DNA of 64,000 nucleotides from an uncultured Eubacteriales bacterium (GTDB lineage Bacteria; Bacillota; Clostridia; Christensenellales; CAG-138), in assembly GCA_900546845.1 (NCBI GenBank), contig UREK01000010.1, positions 5,040-69,039 of the forward strand. Direction: 5' to 3'. Shown in pieces: positions 14,994 to 53,646 of this stretch (position 1 is the first letter of the stretch; each line of letters begins with the position of its first letter). The translations under genes and the position numbers were made by a program. A model generated the notes under the pieces. That model was not told the origin of the DNA and searched no databases. It worked only from the letters and a program-made list of their open reading frames with translations.

Positions 14994-15368
14994 GGCAGCG
15001 GGAACAATCCCCCGTCATGGCTTGCGCCGTTTCTCGCGGCAGTTCGTAGTGGCCGCGCGGGTAAGGCAATCCTCAGTCAGCGCTCGCGCGCTGACAGCTC
15101 CTTTGCCAAAGGAGCCTTTTGGTCTGTGTGCTTTCGAGCGGCACCCGTATACGGAAAAATGTTGGGGTGAACCACTTCCAAACGCCCCCTTTCTGAAAGG
15201 AGGTGGCACAGCGTAAGCCGTGACAGAGGATTGCCGTATACAGAATCCGTTGGAGTTCACCACTTCCAAACGCCCCCTTTTTGAAAGGGGGTGGCAGCGC
15301 GCTAGCGCTGACGGGGGATTGCCGTATACGGAAACCCGTCAGAGTTTACCGTTCCCAAAAGCCTCCCC
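14994..15368. repeat. BIME/REPIN-like array of ~88-nt hairpin units (family B), locus 1
   Basis: There are two forward units: ggcaatcc..gtcaNNgc..gcg plus hairpin GCTCCTTTGccAAAGGAGC. Two tandem inverted units follow (15155..15243 and 15244..15331; CCCCCTTTnnGAAAGGGGG ... gtgacNgNggattgccgtatac). A partial third unit abuts the glpK stop. The array is homologous to 49671..49958. Confidence 0.8.
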
Positions 15369-20891: not shown

Positions 20892-20961
20892 TTCCCCAGT
20901 TCGCGGCAGAACCAATAGAAAGCTGATCCCCGCCGGTCCAATGGACTTGCGAGGATCAGCT

Positions 20962-21150
20962 TGTCGAAAAAGCCTTTCCGGGATTGTCAAGGGCCGCAGC
21001 CCTTGACTTTCCATCGCGGGCAGCGGCCTGTGCGGTGCGAGCGAAAAGCCTTGCGCCGCAAGGCTTTCTTTACACGGAGCGCTGACCGCGCCATCGGCGC
21101 AAGCGCGACGTGAATCCCTCGATAAAGTGGCAGATGCCACTTTATCGACA
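20962..21150. repeat. 189-bp multi-hairpin MITE-like element (family A), copy 1
   Basis: TGTCGAAAAAG...CTTTATCGACA terminal inverted repeats. Internal hairpins are GTCAAGGGCcgcaGCCCTTGAC, GAAAGCCTTGCgccGCAAGGCTTTC and TCGATAAAGTGGCAgaTGCCACTTTATCGA. It lies between convergent genes. Confidence 0.85.
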
Positions 21151-21179
21151 GCATGAAAGCTCCCGCGGGAGCTTCTTTG

Positions 21180-25840: not shown

Positions 25841-25866
25841 GCGCAAAAAACAAAGAGCATGAAAAA

Positions 25867-25891
25867 GAGCGGGTGCATACCCGCTCTTTTT
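25867..25891 (+). terminator. intrinsic terminator
   Basis: GAGCGGGT-gcat-ACCCGCTC followed by TTTTT. Confidence 0.75.
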
Positions 25892-25896
25892 CATGC

Positions 25897-26085
25897 TGTC
25901 GATCAAGTGGCAGATGCCACTTGATCGAGGGATTCACGTCGCGCTTGCGCCGATGACACAGCCAGCGCTCCGTGTAAAGAAAGCCTTGCGCCGCAAGGCT
26001 TTTCGCTTGCACCGCACAGGTCGCTGCGCGCGATCAAAAGTCAAGGGCTGCGGCCCTTGACAATCCCGGAGAGATTTTTTCATGT
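25897..26085. repeat. family A element, copy 2 (inverted relative to copy 1)
   Basis: Same 189-bp architecture as copy 1. The terminal hairpin is TCGATCAAGTGGCAgaTGCCACTTGATCGA. It lies between convergent genes. Confidence 0.85.
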
Positions 26086-26267
26086 CCGCGCCGCAGCCGC
26101 AGCAGCTGGAGGAGCCGGGACAAGGCGGCCGTATCTTTTTCGGCGGCACAGTTTGCTGAAAGGAACAGCGCTCGTTTCCCATGCTTCAGAAATCAGGGAA
26201 CGCGCAAGGCGGCGGGAGCACACCCGAGTGTATTCCCGCCGCCTTGCAGTAAAGATTGGTTTCGTTT

Positions 26268-33586: not shown

Positions 33587-33599
33587 GCGCATTTCAGGC

Positions 33600-33789
33600 T
33601 GTCGCTAAAGTGGCACCTGCCACTTTAGCGAGGTTTGCACTTCGCGCTTGCGCCGCCCGCGCGGCGAGCGCTTCGCGTAAAGAAAGCCTTGCAACGCAAG
33701 GCTTTTCGCTCGCACCGCACAGTTTCGCTGCTCGCGATCAAAAGTCAAGGGCTGCGGCCCCTGACAATCCCGGGAAGACTTTTTCGACA
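33600..33789. repeat. family A element, copy 3 (same orientation as copy 2)
   Basis: The terminal hairpin is TCGCTAAAGTGGCAccTGCCACTTTAGCGA, with changes compensatory relative to the other copies. The middle hairpin has an altered loop (GCAACGC). Confidence 0.85.
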
Positions 33790-33844
33790 CGCTGCGACGC
33801 ATGCGGGCAGCCTTTCGGCTGCCCGCATGGTCCGCAATTCCAAT

Positions 33845-38895: not shown

Positions 38896-40200
38896 CTACA
38901 GTTCGAAGATCGTCTGATCCTCGACCTCGGTCGTGAGCGCCTCAAGCGCACGGGCGACCAGCTTCTTGCGAAGCGCGTACTCCTCCTCAGCGGGCAGAGC
39001 CGGGTTGCCAAGGGGATGCGGGATCGCAATCGTCGGAACGATTCGGTTTGCGCCGACCGTCATCGAGATAGGCGTGACCGTGCACATATGCACCACGGGG
39101 ATGCCCGCCCTTTCGATTTCTTTCACCATCGTTGCACCGCAACGCGTGCAGGTGCCTCAGGTCGAGGTCATGATGACGGCGTTTACGCCGGCCTGCAGGA
39201 GCTTTTGCGCATACTCCGCGGCGAACTTCTTCGCGTTGGCGACGGAAGTGCCGTTGCCGACGGTGGTGTAGAAATAATCGTGCAGCTTGCCGATCCTGCC
39301 CTCGCGCTCAAACTCGCGCAGCACGTCCACGGGGAGGACGCGGTTCGGGTTCTCGTTGGCATACACGGGGTCGTAGCCGCCGTGCGCGGTCTCATAGGTC
39401 GCTTCGGTCAGCTTTTCCACGCCCTTGATGCAGTATTCGCCATAGTGGGACGCGGAGGAGGATTCGATGTGGTCCGGGTTGCCCTTGGGCACGATGCCGC
39501 CGGAGGTGCACAGCGCGACCGTCGCGTGCGCAAGATCCTTCACGGCCGGGTTGGGGGCGACGCGGTCGAAGGAGGGCATCGGGTATTCCGTGGTGAACGG
39601 CTTGTCGGCAAGCTTCTTGAGGAGCATGTCAACAGCGCGCTTGGAGCCGCGCTCCTTCTCGAAGAAGTTCACGCGCACGCCGTTGGGCATGTAGCCGTCC
39701 TCGCAGGAAGCACCGAGCTTTTCGCCCTTCATCAGCTTGAGCGCGAGCTTTGCCATCACAGGCGCGGCCTTGCGCATGCCGGCCGCGCTGTTGGCGGTGG
39801 GCACGATGAGGAGCTTATCCTTGAGGTCCGCGCCGGGGTTTTCTTCATACATGCCGGTGAGGACCGGGATGCCGAGTTCTTCCTTCACAGCAAGCGCAAC
39901 GTTGGCGCAGGCATAGCCATAGCGGCCGGCGTTGAACGCGGGGCCTGCGATGAACAGATCCGGCTTCTTTTCCTTGACCCATGCGAGGATCTGAGCCTTC
40001 GCCTCTTTTTCATGCTCCGCGAAGTGGGAGTCGCCGCAGACGATCGTCGCCACGATCTCCGCCTCGCCCTTCCAAGCCTGGTTGAACGCGAGGCCGGGGC
40101 CTACGAATCCTTCCCGCAGCTCGGGAGCTACGTGCGCCATTTCCTCGCCGCCGATGTTGGCGAAGAACTGGTTGATGTAATGTACAACACGATAACTCAT
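38896..40200 (-). CDS. grdB: glycine reductase complex selenoprotein B (in-frame UGA)
   Basis: Track ORFs 39157..40200 and 38896..39129 are one frame joined by TGA 39157..39159: ...AVIMTST-U-GTCTRCGATMVKEIERAGIPVVHMCT... This is the UxxCxxC GrdB motif. The N-terminus is VVHYINQFFANIGGEE. Confidence 0.92.
39157..39159 (-). other. UGA selenocysteine codon of grdB
   Basis: The frame continues for 87 more codons. A GCACC...GGTGC stem follows directly after the UGA. Confidence 0.85.
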
Positions 40201-41995: not shown

Positions 41996-42222
41996 CAAAA
42001 AAACAGAGCAGGCCGCGGGCAACAGAAATTAGCCCTTGCCTGACTCTGTACATAAACCTGAGAGATTCCCCGCAGCTCGCCGCAGGTTGCGCCTTCGGTG
42101 CTTTCGCTTTCCAGAGTTTTGTCGGAATACAGTCCGTTTGCCTGAGATGTTCGCGCCGTGCCGGCAAGCTGCGGCGCTTATTCCTTCGGCCCCGCCCAAC
42201 CTGGGGCAGAATCTCCTGTATT
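41996..42222 (-). promoter_or_regulatory. tandem glycine riboswitch with terminator expression platform
   Basis: Aptamer 1 on the minus strand: ATACAGGAGA...GGGCCGAAGGAA...TCTCAGGCAAACGGACTGTAT. Aptamer 2: CTCTGGAAAG...CACCGAAGGCGCAA...CTCTCAGG...ACAGAG. The terminator that follows has a 5' arm that reuses the ACAGAG of P1, and it ends in TTTTTTT. Confidence 0.85.
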
Positions 42223-42277
42223 CTTCATCCAAAGCAGATTCAATTTTATTGCAGGGAAGCCATCCCCTACGTCTATA

Positions 42278-44363: not shown

Positions 44364-44460
44364 TGGCGGGAACATGTGGGAATCGAACCCACCTGGGCAG
44401 CTCTTCACCACCTGCAACGGTTTTGAAGACCGCGGGGCACACCAGCACCCATCTGCTCCC
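44364..44460 (-). tRNA. selC: tRNA-Sec (anticodon UCA)
   Basis: The reverse complement is GGGAGCAGATGGGTGCTGGTGTGCCCCGCGGTCTTCAAAACCGTTGCAGGTGGTGAAGAGCTGCCCAGGTGGGTTCGATTCCCACATGTTCCCGCCA. It has a CTTCAAA anticodon loop, a long variable arm and the T-arm GTGGG-TTCGATT-CCCAC. Confidence 0.9.
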
Positions 44461-49670: not shown

Positions 49671-49958
49671 GGATACAGCAATCCTCAGTCACGGCTTGCG
49701 CCATTTATTGCGACAGTTCGCAAAGGCCGCGCGAATAAGGACAATCCTCAGTCCGCTTCGCGGACAGCTCCTTTGCCAAAGGAGCCTTTTGATCAATGCG
49801 CTTCCCTGCGCTATCCGAATACGAAATCCGTTGGAGTCCACCACCCCCAAACGCCCCTTTTTAAAAGGGGGGGCACGGCGCAAGCCGTGACGGGGGATTG
49901 CCGTATTCCAGCGCGCAAGCGCTAACGGGGGATTGCCTTGCTAAGTCTGCCGTAGGGT
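49671..49958. repeat. BIME/REPIN-like array (family B), locus 2
   Basis: Collinear with 14994..15368. Two forward caatcctcagtc... units carry the GCTCCTTTGccAAAGGAGC hairpin. Inverted units follow, ending in gtgacgggggattgcc and aacgggggattgcc. Confidence 0.8.
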
Positions 49959-51030: not shown

Positions 51031-52179
51031 ATGCGCACGATCTATCTTGACAACGCCGCGACTTCGTTCCCAAAACCCGCCGGCGTCAGCGACCGCATGA
51101 AGGAATACCTCGATTCCGTGGGCGCAAACATCAACCGTTCCGTCTATGGCGCCGCACAGGATGCGGGGCTCGTGGCCCTGCGCCTGCGGGAACGCCTCGC
51201 GCGGCTTTTCGCCTTCCCGGAAAAGCCGACCCACGTGATCCTCACCCCCGGCGCGACCGCGGGGCTCAACTTCATCATAAAGGGGTATCTGCGCCCCGGG
51301 GACCACTGCATCGTGAGCGCGATGGAGCACAATGCCGTGATGCGCCCGCTTTTGCAGCTCTCCGGCGTGGCGTTCGACCGCATCCCCTGCGACGCGGCGG
51401 GCCGTTTCGACCCGGCGGCTATCCTGCCGCTCATCCGCCCAAACACGCGCCTCTGCCTCATCGCCCACGCTTCCAACGTGTGCGGTACGGTACAGGACGC
51501 TGCGGCCGTGGGGGAGATCTGCGCGGCGCACGGCGTCGCCTTCGCGCTCGATGCGGCGCAGACCGCCGGGCATATCCCCATCGACTTTGCAAAGCTGCGC
51601 CTGAGCGCGCTCTGCGCGCCCGGGCATAAGGGGCTTCTCGGCCCTTCCGGCATCGGCGTGCTGCTTGTGCGGGATGATTTCGCCCATTCGCTTACGCCGC
51701 TCCTCGCGGGCGGCACGGGGAGCGCTTCGGACAGCGAATACCTGCCGGATTACCTGCCGGACCGCTTTGAATCCGGCACGGCGAACCTGCCCGGCATCTA
51801 TGGCTTGGAGCAGGCGATCCGCTTTATAGAAGAAACGGGAATCGACGCGCTGCGCGCCCACGAGCTCCGGCTGACCGCGCGCTTCCTCGATGGGCTCGCC
51901 GGCATCCCGAATATCCGTCTTTGCGGCACAGGGGAACTTTCCCGCCGCGTGGGCGTGATCTCAGTGGATTTCTTGAAGTGCGACAACGCGGAAGCCGCCT
52001 TCCGGCTGGAGAGCGAGTTCGGCGTCCTCACCCGCTGCGGGCTCCACTGCGCGCCCTCCGCGCATAAGACGCTCGGCACCTTCCCGCAGGGCACCGTGCG
52101 CTTCTCGCTGGGCTTTGCGAACACGGAGGATGATGTGGATGCCGCGCTTTCCGCCATCCGCGCCGTCAGCGCAGGATGA
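51031..52179 (+). CDS. class V aminotransferase: cysteine desulfurase / selenocysteine lyase family
   Basis: IYLDNAATSFPKP...SAMEHNAV...HASNVCG...PGHKGLLGP (PLP Lys context). Confidence 0.85.
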   Translation: MRTIYLDNAATSFPKPAGVSDRMKEYLDSVGANINRSVYGAAQDAGLVALRLRERLARLFAFPEKPTHVILTPGATAGLNFIIKGYLRPGDHCIVSAMEHNAVMRPLLQLSGVAFDRIPCDAAGRFDPAAILPLIRPNTRLCLIAHASNVCGTVQDAAAVGEICAAHGVAFALDAAQTAGHIPIDFAKLRLSALCAPGHKGLLGPSGIGVLLVRDDFAHSLTPLLAGGTGSASDSEYLPDYLPDRFESGTANLPGIYGLEQAIRFIEETGIDALRAHELRLTARFLDGLAGIPNIRLCGTGELSRRVGVISVDFLKCDNAEAAFRLESEFGVLTRCGLHCAPSAHKTLGTFPQGTVRFSLGFANTEDDVDAALSAIRAVSAG

Positions 52180-53206
52180 TCCGCTTCCCGCCCTCGTATT
52201 TTGCGACCGTTCCGATGCGCTGCGCGCTCGGGACGGTTTTTTTCAGCTCTTCATACAGCGCGTCCGCGTCCGCCGCGGCAACGGCGATCAGGAGGCCGCC
52301 CGCCGTCTGCGGGTCATAAAGGACGTCCTGCTTGGCAAGCTCCGTCTCCCCCGCGTCCACACCCATTTCCGCGAACGTGCGGTTGCGGTACATGCCCGCG
52401 GGCAGAAAGCCCATGCGTGCAAGCTCCAGCGCTTCGGGGATAACGTCCACCGCGTCCACATGGAGGGTGATCGTCACGTCGCTGCCGGCGGCCATCTCAT
52501 ATGCGTGGCCCAGGAGACCGAAGCCCGTCACGTCCGTGCAGGCATGCACATCGTATTTTATCATCGCGTCCCGCGCAGCCTTGTTGAGCGTGGTCATCAT
52601 GCGGTACATGAGCGCCTCGCTTTCTTCCGAAAGCATGTCCGCCTTTGCGGCGGTTGAAAGCACGCCGATGCCGATGGGCTTGGTCAAAAGCAGCACGTCC
52701 CCCGGCTTTGCGCCGGAGTTGGTGAGCACCTTGTCCGGATGCACGAAGCCCGTTACGGCAAGGCCGTATTTCGGCTCGTCATCGTGAATGCTGTGGCCGC
52801 CCGTGATGAGCGCGCCTGCCTCATAGACCTTATCATAGCCGCCGCGCAAAAGCGCATGCACCGCATCCATGGGCATGGATTCCGGGATGGCCATGATGTT
52901 GAGGCAGAGCTTCGGCTCGCCGCCCATGGCGTAAACGTCAGAAAGGGCGTTCGTGGCGGCGATCTGCCCGAACAGGTACGGATCATCCGCGATCGGCGGG
53001 AAGAAATCCACCGTCTGCACCAGCGCCAGTTCGTCGCTGATCTTGTAAACCGAGGCGTCGTCGCTCTTGTCGAAGCCAACGATCAGATTCGGGTCATGGT
53101 GCACCCGGATCCCCTCCAGCAGCTGCGCGAGCACGCCCGCGCCGACCTTCGCGCCGCAGCCGGCGCATTTTGCAAGCTTTGTGAGCTTGATGTCCTTCGC
53201 TTCCAT
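52166..53206 (-). CDS. selD: selenide, water dikinase (Cys-type)
   Basis: IKLTKLAKCAGCGAKVG N-terminal motif (Cys, not Sec) plus an AIR-synthase-like body. The ATG at 53206 is 9 nt after AGGAG. The 3' end overlaps the convergent desulfurase gene by 14 nt. Confidence 0.9.
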   Translation of the reverse strand: MEAKDIKLTKLAKCAGCGAKVGAGVLAQLLEGIRVHHDPNLIVGFDKSDDASVYKISDELALVQTVDFFPPIADDPYLFGQIAATNALSDVYAMGGEPKLCLNIMAIPESMPMDAVHALLRGGYDKVYEAGALITGGHSIHDDEPKYGLAVTGFVHPDKVLTNSGAKPGDVLLLTKPIGIGVLSTAAKADMLSEESEALMYRMMTTLNKAARDAMIKYDVHACTDVTGFGLLGHAYEMAAGSDVTITLHVDAVDVIPEALELARMGFLPAGMYRNRTFAEMGVDAGETELAKQDVLYDPQTAGGLLIAVAAADADALYEELKKTVPSAQRIGTVAKYEGGKRIILR

Positions 53207-53391
53207 CGCAACCTTCTCCTTTTTCCGCGCCGGCGCCAAACCGCCCGTCACGCAAGGCTATTGTCTCAAATCCAGGGCCGGATTGCAACCGCGCGCCGCA
53301 TCATTTTTGTGCGCCGGACGCTATTTTTATCGAAAAAAACGATGAAATGCGCTCGCGGCGGGAAGCGATTGCTCCCGCCGCCGTGCCAGCT

Positions 53392-53580
53392 TGTCGAAAA
53401 AGTCTCTCTAGGATTGTCAAGGGCCGCAGCCCTTGACTTTCAATCGCGAGCAGCGACCTGTGCGGTGCGAGCGAAAAGCCTTGCGCCGCAAGGCTTTCTT
53501 TACACGGAGCGCTGGCCGCGCCATCGGCGCAAGCGCGATGTGCAATCCTCGATCAAGTGGCATCCGCCACTTGATCGACA
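53392..53580. repeat. family A element, copy 4 (same orientation as copy 1)
   Basis: 189 bp. The terminal hairpin is TCGATCAAGTGGCatccGCCACTTGATCGA. It is bracketed by an identical 28-nt direct repeat (53354..53381 and 53587..53614). Confidence 0.85.
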
Positions 53581-53646
53581 GCCTATCGCGGCGGGAAGCG
53601 ATTGCTCCCGCCGCGCTTTGTCTATATGCCAAATATTGACGTTTTC

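Follow-up and report, generated by a model that had tools for sequence, protein, structure and literature searches.

Bacterial MITEs such as Correia/NEMIS, RUP, ERIC, Chunjie and QMITE are small, non-coding elements that possess terminal inverted repeats, are bordered by a target-site duplication, are dispersed as many intergenic copies and fold into stable structures (PMC10969869). A 2024 review of prokaryotic MITEs describes no family that targets or duplicates transcription terminators (PMC10969869). Hairpins are known as insertion targets from IS1272 (IS1182 family) and TnSha1 of staphylococci, which insert in either orientation into hairpins, many of them confirmed terminators, and show no primary-sequence consensus at their targets (PMC4923244; PMC5678879). 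Insertion of IS1272 is accompanied by loss of the stem-loop, in part or entirely, and gives no target duplication (PMC4923244). According to a hypothetical pathway drawn for IS1272, joining of the element ends to the 5′ feet of a cruciform would duplicate the whole stem-loop (Wan et al., 2017; PMC5678879, Fig. 13 pathway b), and other palindrome-targeting members of the IS1182 family were reported by Siguier et al. (2015), as cited in PMC4923244 and PMC5678879. A literature search for MITEs or insertion sequences that duplicate terminators returned only the papers on hairpin targeting by IS1272. Direct repeats of 0–60 bp are reportedly listed for the IS1182 family in ISfinder, a range into which the duplications described below would fit.

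The element described here occurs in the window, i.e., the whole 64-kb stretch of DNA that was analyzed (62% G+C), and resembles each of these systems in part. On the one hand, it has in common with bacterial MITEs its small size (199 bp), the lack of coding capacity, terminal inverted repeats, target duplications, numerous intergenic copies and stable folding. The target duplications of MITEs are short and fixed in length (2–10 bp), as set by the parent transposase, whereas those of the present element are of variable length, which is unusual, and consist of a whole terminator hairpin. On the other hand, as for IS1272 and TnSha1, the target appears to be chosen by DNA secondary structure, terminators included, and insertion occurs in either orientation. 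However, IS1272 is a 1.9-kb autonomous element that deletes the stem-loop, whereas the 199-bp non-coding element duplicates it entirely. The SPRITE and BOX repeats of Streptococcus pneumoniae, also from Firmicutes, are likewise assembled from hairpin modules that include a rho-independent terminator-like module; unlike them, the present element holds its terminator-like module (hairpin 3) inside clear inverted termini, and there is neither sequence similarity between them nor any reported duplication of host terminators flanking SPRITE or BOX. Rhizobial RIME-type repeats were dropped from the comparison, as the host is of Clostridia type (SpoIID in the window, copies in Christensenella), and group IIC introns, which also insert after terminators, were set aside in view of the short unit, its inverted-repeat ends and the target duplication. 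We consider it very probable that the 199-bp element is a non-coding MITE that depends on a transposase acting in trans, which targets stem-loops or cruciforms by DNA shape and duplicates the whole stem-loop. The novelty lies in a MITE with structure-specific insertion and a target duplication of hairpin length.

The window carries exactly four copies of the element (Table 1), and a search of the window with an nhmmer profile of 35 members of the family adds no other. A sequence-only reading of the same DNA had placed four copies at 20962–21150 (+), 25897–26085 (−), 33600–33789 (−) and 53392–53580 (+), and these places are borne out both by the profile and by two conserved probes (30 and 33 nt), each of which matches the four copies only, with 0 matches in 100 shuffles. 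The length of 189 bp proposed at that time is to be corrected: judging from the flanking target duplications, the element extends 5 nt beyond these limits at both ends, hence a unit of 199 bp, over which the four copies display pairwise identities of 82–91%. Likewise, the ends described as common to all four copies are not both present in copy 2, in which the left terminal repeat has been lost and the sequence reads CGCGGACATGAAAAAA. For the comparison of flanks, the boundaries of the element were defined by a 199-nt profile (5′-CAG…CTG-3′). No reading frame is open across all four window copies. The terminal inverted repeats are 16 nt long (5′-CAGCNTGTCGAAAAAG…CTTTWTCGACAGSCTG-3′); in the consensus, 14 of the 16 positions agree between the left end and the right end read in reverse complement (CAGSCTGTCGAWAAAG), and a search with the left-end 16-mer retrieves right ends, inverted.

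Table 1. Coordinates of the window copies, of their main parts and flanking hairpins, and of related small elements in viral contigs.
Feature	Position	Strand	Remarks
Terminal sequence bounding the element			CAGCNTGTCRAAAAAG and its reverse complement
Copy 1	20957–21155	+	199 bp
Copy 1, left inverted repeat	20957–20972	+	
Copy 1, hairpin 1	20986–21007	+	GTCAAGGGC-cgca-GCCCTTGAC
Copy 1, hairpin 3	about 21044–21068	+	terminator-like
Copy 1, hairpin 5	21119–21148	+	holds the right inverted repeat
Terminator-like hairpin directly right of copy 1	21157–21174	.	AAGCTCCCGCGGGAGCTT; surviving copy of the target hairpin
Copy 2	25892–26090	−	first ~10 nt (left inverted repeat) replaced; left target copy lost
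Hairpin abutting the right end of copy 2	25862–25891	−	AAAAAGAGCGGGTATGCACCCGCTCTTTTT; surviving copy of the target terminator
Copy 3	33595–33794	−	200 bp; both inverted repeats intact
Hairpin beside the left end of copy 3, at a distance of 5 nt	33800–33829	−	CATGCGGGCAGCC-gaaa-GGCTGCCCGCATG
Copy 4	53387–53585	+	199 bp; sole window copy with an intact target duplication
Copy 4, left 29-nt target duplication	53353–53381	.	TCGCGGCGGGAAGCGATTGCTCCCGCCGC; pyrE terminator stem-loop
Copy 4, right 29-nt stem-loop	53586–53614	.	identical to the left one at 29/29 positions
Small element in viral contig L181	4178–4359		182 bp; same termini; 30-nt duplication GAAAAGGGTTGACGATGGTCAACCCTTTTT
Small element in viral contig L201	1062–1346		285 bp; same termini; perfect hairpin duplication

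Based on ORF composition and Pfam, copies 1–3 lie between convergent genes, as the sequence-only reading had held for three of the four copies: an ABC-2 permease gene and SpoIID face copy 1, an unnamed ORF and the gene of a YkuD-SH3 protein face copy 2, and the genes of a DUF305 protein and PlsX face copy 3. Copy 4 is found between two tandem minus-strand genes, pyrE and an AIR-synthase-like gene (52166–53251, −) that is probably selD and probably codes for a selenocysteine-containing product; its orthologs in L150–L153 contain an in-frame TGA (TGCGCCGGGTGAGGCGCA), versus GGGTGCGGC in L154 and L155. The window also carries tRNA-Sec (44368–44460), a SECIS_4 element (39119–39156) and a glycine riboswitch (42120–42228), which, together with its G+C content and SpoIID, identify the host as an organism of Clostridia type. 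Furthermore, a second and unrelated repeat family is present at 15089–15366 and 49759–49915 of the window, and at L059:2520–2680 in a related metagenome contig; it is made of ~88-nt units, two of which stand in tandem at 15161–15336, and displays the motifs CAGCTCCTTTGCCAAAGGAGC and GGGGGATTGCCGTATAC.

Direct repeats, counted at a score of at least 12, abut the element in 29 of the 55 copies that have distinct flanks, and measure 13–38 nt (median 26). In these 29 copies, no nucleotide separates the repeat from the element on the left in 23 cases and on the right in 24. When the left flank of one copy was instead paired with the right flank of another, the mean best score was 6.1 and the 95th percentile 8, versus 13–38 observed. 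Nearly all duplications (27/29) fold as a hairpin of at least 5 bp, i.e., insertion takes place into palindromic or hairpin targets as in the IS1182 family, and the sequence of the duplicated stem-loop differs from locus to locus. The duplicated unit usually comprises an A-tract, stem, loop, stem and the first T residues, and is the extended stem of an intrinsic terminator. Terminator hairpins adjoining the copies had been seen in the sequence-only reading; what it had missed is that insertion occurs at the hairpin itself, which thereby comes to stand in two copies, one on either side of the element. No intact duplication is found in 26 of the 55 copies, including three of the four window copies, and in these a hairpin remains on one side only: copies 1 and 2 have kept it on the right and copy 3 on the left, the second copy of its target hairpin, on the right side, being reduced to ATGCG. 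The left target hairpin of copy 1 is degraded in the window and intact in metagenome locus L047, with which copy 1 has its right flank in common. The 26 copies without an intact duplication count against a MITE that duplicates hairpins.

Other small elements, retrieved from viral contigs by a scan with the terminal 16-mer, combine the same termini and perfect hairpin duplications with unrelated interiors (Table 1). In L181 and L201 the termini and the hairpin duplication thus remain associated although the interiors are unrelated, and they presumably define what the transposase recognizes. Two further observations concern the termini. In one copy (L108:10700–10725), the terminal 10-mer is inverted and reads CGACAAGCTG instead of CAGCTTGTCG, with a T5 run on one side and an A5 run on the other. 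In a relative with 88% identity, the region downstream of pyrE (L149:3690–3875) contains a different sequence of ~185 nt that ends with TTTTTTGACAGCCTG and precedes a terminator hairpin; this sequence may be a further element with the right terminus in common.

Empty sites were found in relatives. Where PyrE is 93, 89, and 85% identical to that of the window, the spacer between pyrE and the AIR-synthase-like gene contains one terminator hairpin followed by a T-rich tract and no element, whereas the same spacer in the window reads hairpin, element, hairpin. With four copies in 64 kb and these empty sites, the element is both dispersed in many copies and present or absent depending on the genome, as MITEs are. 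The sequence of the hairpin at the empty pyrE sites differs between the related genomes, and a filled and empty pair with an identical hairpin sequence was not encountered among the fetched loci; that the empty sites come from genomes with a different hairpin sequence speaks against the model.

The interior of the element is highly structured. The three hairpins recognized by the sequence-only reading are all present, among a total of five that are conserved. The consensus structure, derived from 17 sister-subfamily copies of several genomes, consists of these five hairpins and 50 pairs, in which 98% of the cells are standard pairs versus 34–51% after sliding the 3′ partners by 1–3 columns, and 14 pairs have changed on both sides versus 1–3 after sliding. 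On four of five measures the observed values were reached by 0 of 500 column shuffles; the fifth, a count of further pair types, was no higher than in the 500 column shuffles. The window-type subfamily (24 sequences) forms the same five hairpins at equivalent positions, and its identity to the sister subfamilies is only about 53%, mostly in the termini and hairpin 1. Compensatory changes in the stems, first noticed in the window alone, hold when many copies are aligned, and the paired changes of the terminal hairpin (GATAAAG/CTTTATC, GATCAAG/CTTGATC, and GCTAAAG/CTTTAGC) were confirmed in the window copies. The latter arise because hairpin 5 pairs the right terminal repeat with an inner inverted copy of itself.

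Individual hairpins also have features of their own. Hairpin 1 (GGGATTGTCAAGGGC-N4-GCCCTTGAC) has an invariant stem sequence, with one G-T wobble in copy 3, and a variable loop, and judging from this pattern it is most likely a protein-binding palindrome. Hairpin 3 has a G+C-rich stem with an A-tract on one side and a T-tract on the other, and for this reason resembles a two-way intrinsic terminator. The conservation of five internal hairpins exceeds what a simple MITE needs and is left over by a MITE model alone, against which it therefore counts; templated repair within quasi-palindromes could also contribute to keeping the stems perfect without selection.

The hairpin 1 sequence is also met outside the family. 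It is found in Ktedonobacteraceae, Chloroflexia, a Chlamydiales MAG and soil and freshwater metagenomes, within quite different repeats in which it is followed by C/TGGGGyyTGGGGC…GCCCC (L002, L006, L010, L016–L018, L025, L040, L043, L045, L048, L058, L064, L067, and others). One such family of ~110 nt has several stems that appear to covary, and the hairpin-1-bearing repeats of these other phyla have no Rfam match.

Four copies in 64 kb had been taken in the sequence-only reading to imply a highly amplified family, and a large family is indeed present in metagenomes and MAGs of human-gut Clostridia. A scan of one genome per species for the hairpin 1 pattern gave 33 loci, among which full-length copies (85–92% identity) are restricted to Christensenella sp. 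UBA1685; several MAGs of Oscillospiraceae and other Clostridia have elements of equal length and layout with other stem sequences. The metagenome scan returned at least 114 stretches, mostly from human-gut assemblies, and 32 of 132 strong profile matches, among the matches listed, are truncated where the stored stretch stops. Contigs thus often break off within the element, as is usual for assemblies that contain a high-copy repeat. In contrast, no match to the element was found in the plasmid (PLSDB) or phage (INPHARED) collections. Comparison with Rfam 15, as the sequence-only reading had advised, was carried out for the window copies and 11 related loci and gave no match at the gathering score; at E < 10, the same sequences retrieved noise only (9–18 bits). 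Within the family, some subfamilies carry an extra hairpin of ~48 nt (CCAAGGTGAATTGCCGCATAGCGGCAAGAGAAGGTCCCCTGGGGGATG) in the loop of hairpin 2 (L034, L053, L060, L071, L119, L121) and others have lost whole internal hairpin modules (L042, L057, L122/L126/L147, L131, L136, L141), and the element therefore evolves module by module. One flank is common and the opposite flanks are different in L046, L059, and L134, and also in window copy 1 compared with L047, which suggests that dispersed copies have undergone homologous recombination or that the assembly is chimeric at the repeat.

The partner transposase was sought in several ways. A search of the viral contigs and of related contigs totaling about 1.1 Mb revealed neither a transposase bounded by the termini of the element nor one of the IS1182 type; the failure to find a transposase bounded by the termini is a point against the MITE model. 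All-against-all comparison of the ORFs flanking the hairpin 1 loci revealed as common genes only spurious ORFs lying over the element itself, and the flanking genes are housekeeping genes (PhzF, a kinase-TPR protein, glycogen phosphorylase). Several candidates for an autonomous or larger element were rejected: L013-type loci are a truncated remnant beside CNNM/CorC and ECF transporter genes; in L135, a truncated copy lies beside a 382-aa ORF with no Pfam or NCBIfam match; L059, L046, and L134 have a common right flank and different left flanks, pointing to recombination or chimeric assembly; L030 and L033 are a different repeat of ~230 nt that has hairpin 1 in common; L095 and L133 are a degenerate remnant of ~60 nt; in L239, which contains an IS21-like istA/istB pair, the match to the terminus sits within coding sequence; and L212, L175, and L179 are chance matches to the terminus.

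The strength of the internal structure raises the question of whether the element acts as RNA. The element could be a structured non-coding RNA or a 3′-UTR module (transcript stabilizer or terminator insulator) whose hairpins are under RNA selection and whose spread is secondary, and in this sense the sequence-only reading had considered a structured RNA domesticated at 3′ ends. Its fold is far stronger than that of shuffled sequences (plus strand, z = −7.5; minus strand, z = −4.9), covariation supports all five hairpins, and copies lie downstream of genes with a terminator-like hairpin 3. However, the 29 copies with an intact duplication differ in where the T-tract of the duplicated terminator lies relative to the element: 5 have it downstream only and 6 upstream only, where it appears as an A-tract, whereas 8 carry it on both sides and are thus ambiguous, and 10 carry it on neither; with 5 copies in the same and 6 in the opposite orientation, the element therefore inserts either way around. 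Window copies are sense to one neighboring gene and antisense to others, the paired columns hold G-U (10) and A-C (6) cells without strand asymmetry, and there is no promoter-like site at copy 1. Both orientations, the lack of a G-U/A-C asymmetry and the lack of a promoter-like site argue against a strand-specific RNA function, and this pattern fits a structure that is of importance at the DNA level, or one that does no harm whichever strand it forms on. Considering in addition that inverted termini and locus-specific duplications are marks of insertion at the DNA level, and that Rfam holds no match, a function as RNA is improbable and the earlier suggestion to that effect is not supported.

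Two other routes of DNA mobility can be weighed against the same evidence. A REPIN or an IS200/IS605-type, palindrome-associated element would be moved as a single strand by an HUH transposase (RAYT/TnpA) that reads subterminal hairpins, and such hairpins do exist in the element, as hairpin 1 close to its left end and hairpin 5 at its right end; its structure, moreover, is kept while the sequence changes. Y1 HUH transposition produces no target duplication and acts on elements devoid of terminal inverted repeats, whereas long duplications abut true inverted termini here; it is on these two features that the earlier REPIN-like reading fails. Moreover, the element ends without a conserved adjoining tetranucleotide and no RAYT- or TnpA-like gene was seen beside any copy. 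REP-RAYT systems are further set apart by the five different hairpins and by the absence of a common neighboring gene, and an IS200/IS605 derivation by flanks that differ at each locus; movement of this type is highly improbable. Finally, a Cas1-like integrase, as in casposase activity or CRISPR spacer integration, could attack both borders of a palindromic repeat and so duplicate it. CRISPR spacer integration duplicates the whole repeat, while casposons give 14–15-bp duplications, and the palindrome of 13–38 nt duplicated here is CRISPR-repeat-like in size and nature. As in spacer integration, the inserted DNA would come to lie between two copies of a palindrome of roughly 30 nt because two joining reactions occur at its two borders. 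The likeness is one of mechanism, drawn by analogy only: no cas1-like gene is found near any copy, and Cas1 systems use a defined, leader-adjacent repeat, whereas the target of the element is any terminator hairpin, of a sequence that differs per site. We regard the involvement of such an integrase as extremely improbable. By contrast, the MITE interpretation already offered in the sequence-only reading is supported by the terminal inverted repeats, the target duplications, the absence of a conserved ORF, the amplification and the empty sites in relatives.

For such a MITE, the following route of insertion can be proposed. A putative transposase encoded elsewhere would mobilize the element in trans and choose its target by DNA shape rather than by sequence, i.e., a stem-loop or cruciform, which in practice would mean intrinsic terminators that follow genes. 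Both 3′ ends of the element would be joined at the two 5′ feet of the extruded cruciform, which are near each other in space and one whole hairpin apart on the linear map. Gap repair would then copy the stem-loop and leave the element between two copies of the terminator, and the duplications would vary between 13 and 38 nt because their length follows that of the hairpin. Each neighboring gene would retain a hairpin copy beside its 3′ end. The first copy met by the transcript would have lost most of its T-tract, and hairpin 3 or the second hairpin copy may serve as the effective terminator and restore termination. The termini, the duplications with their hairpin nature, the empty sites in relatives, the abundance, the covariation and the indifference to orientation are shown, whereas we infer what type of transposase acts, that it attacks a cruciform and which roles the single hairpins play. 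A wider proposal, conceivable yet somewhat doubtful, is that gut Clostridia harbor an uncharacterized transposition system whose transposase would recognize extruded stem-loops, join both feet and duplicate terminators; its elements would be tolerated or even favored through their own two-way terminator (hairpin 3) and the terminator copy given to each neighbor, and hairpin 1 would be the binding site of a widespread DNA-binding or transposition protein.

If the mechanism is true, the family constitutes large-scale natural evidence for a transposase that reads DNA shape and cuts at the feet of hairpins, and provides an abundant, small substrate for finding and testing the enzyme. The family should be masked in annotation, as its copies are otherwise called small RNAs or spurious ORFs. 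Such insertions would account for the tandem terminators that surround repeats in these genomes and for the breaks of metagenome assemblies at these sites in gut Clostridia, and would offer a route to the duplication of terminators and the rewiring of the 3′ ends of operons.
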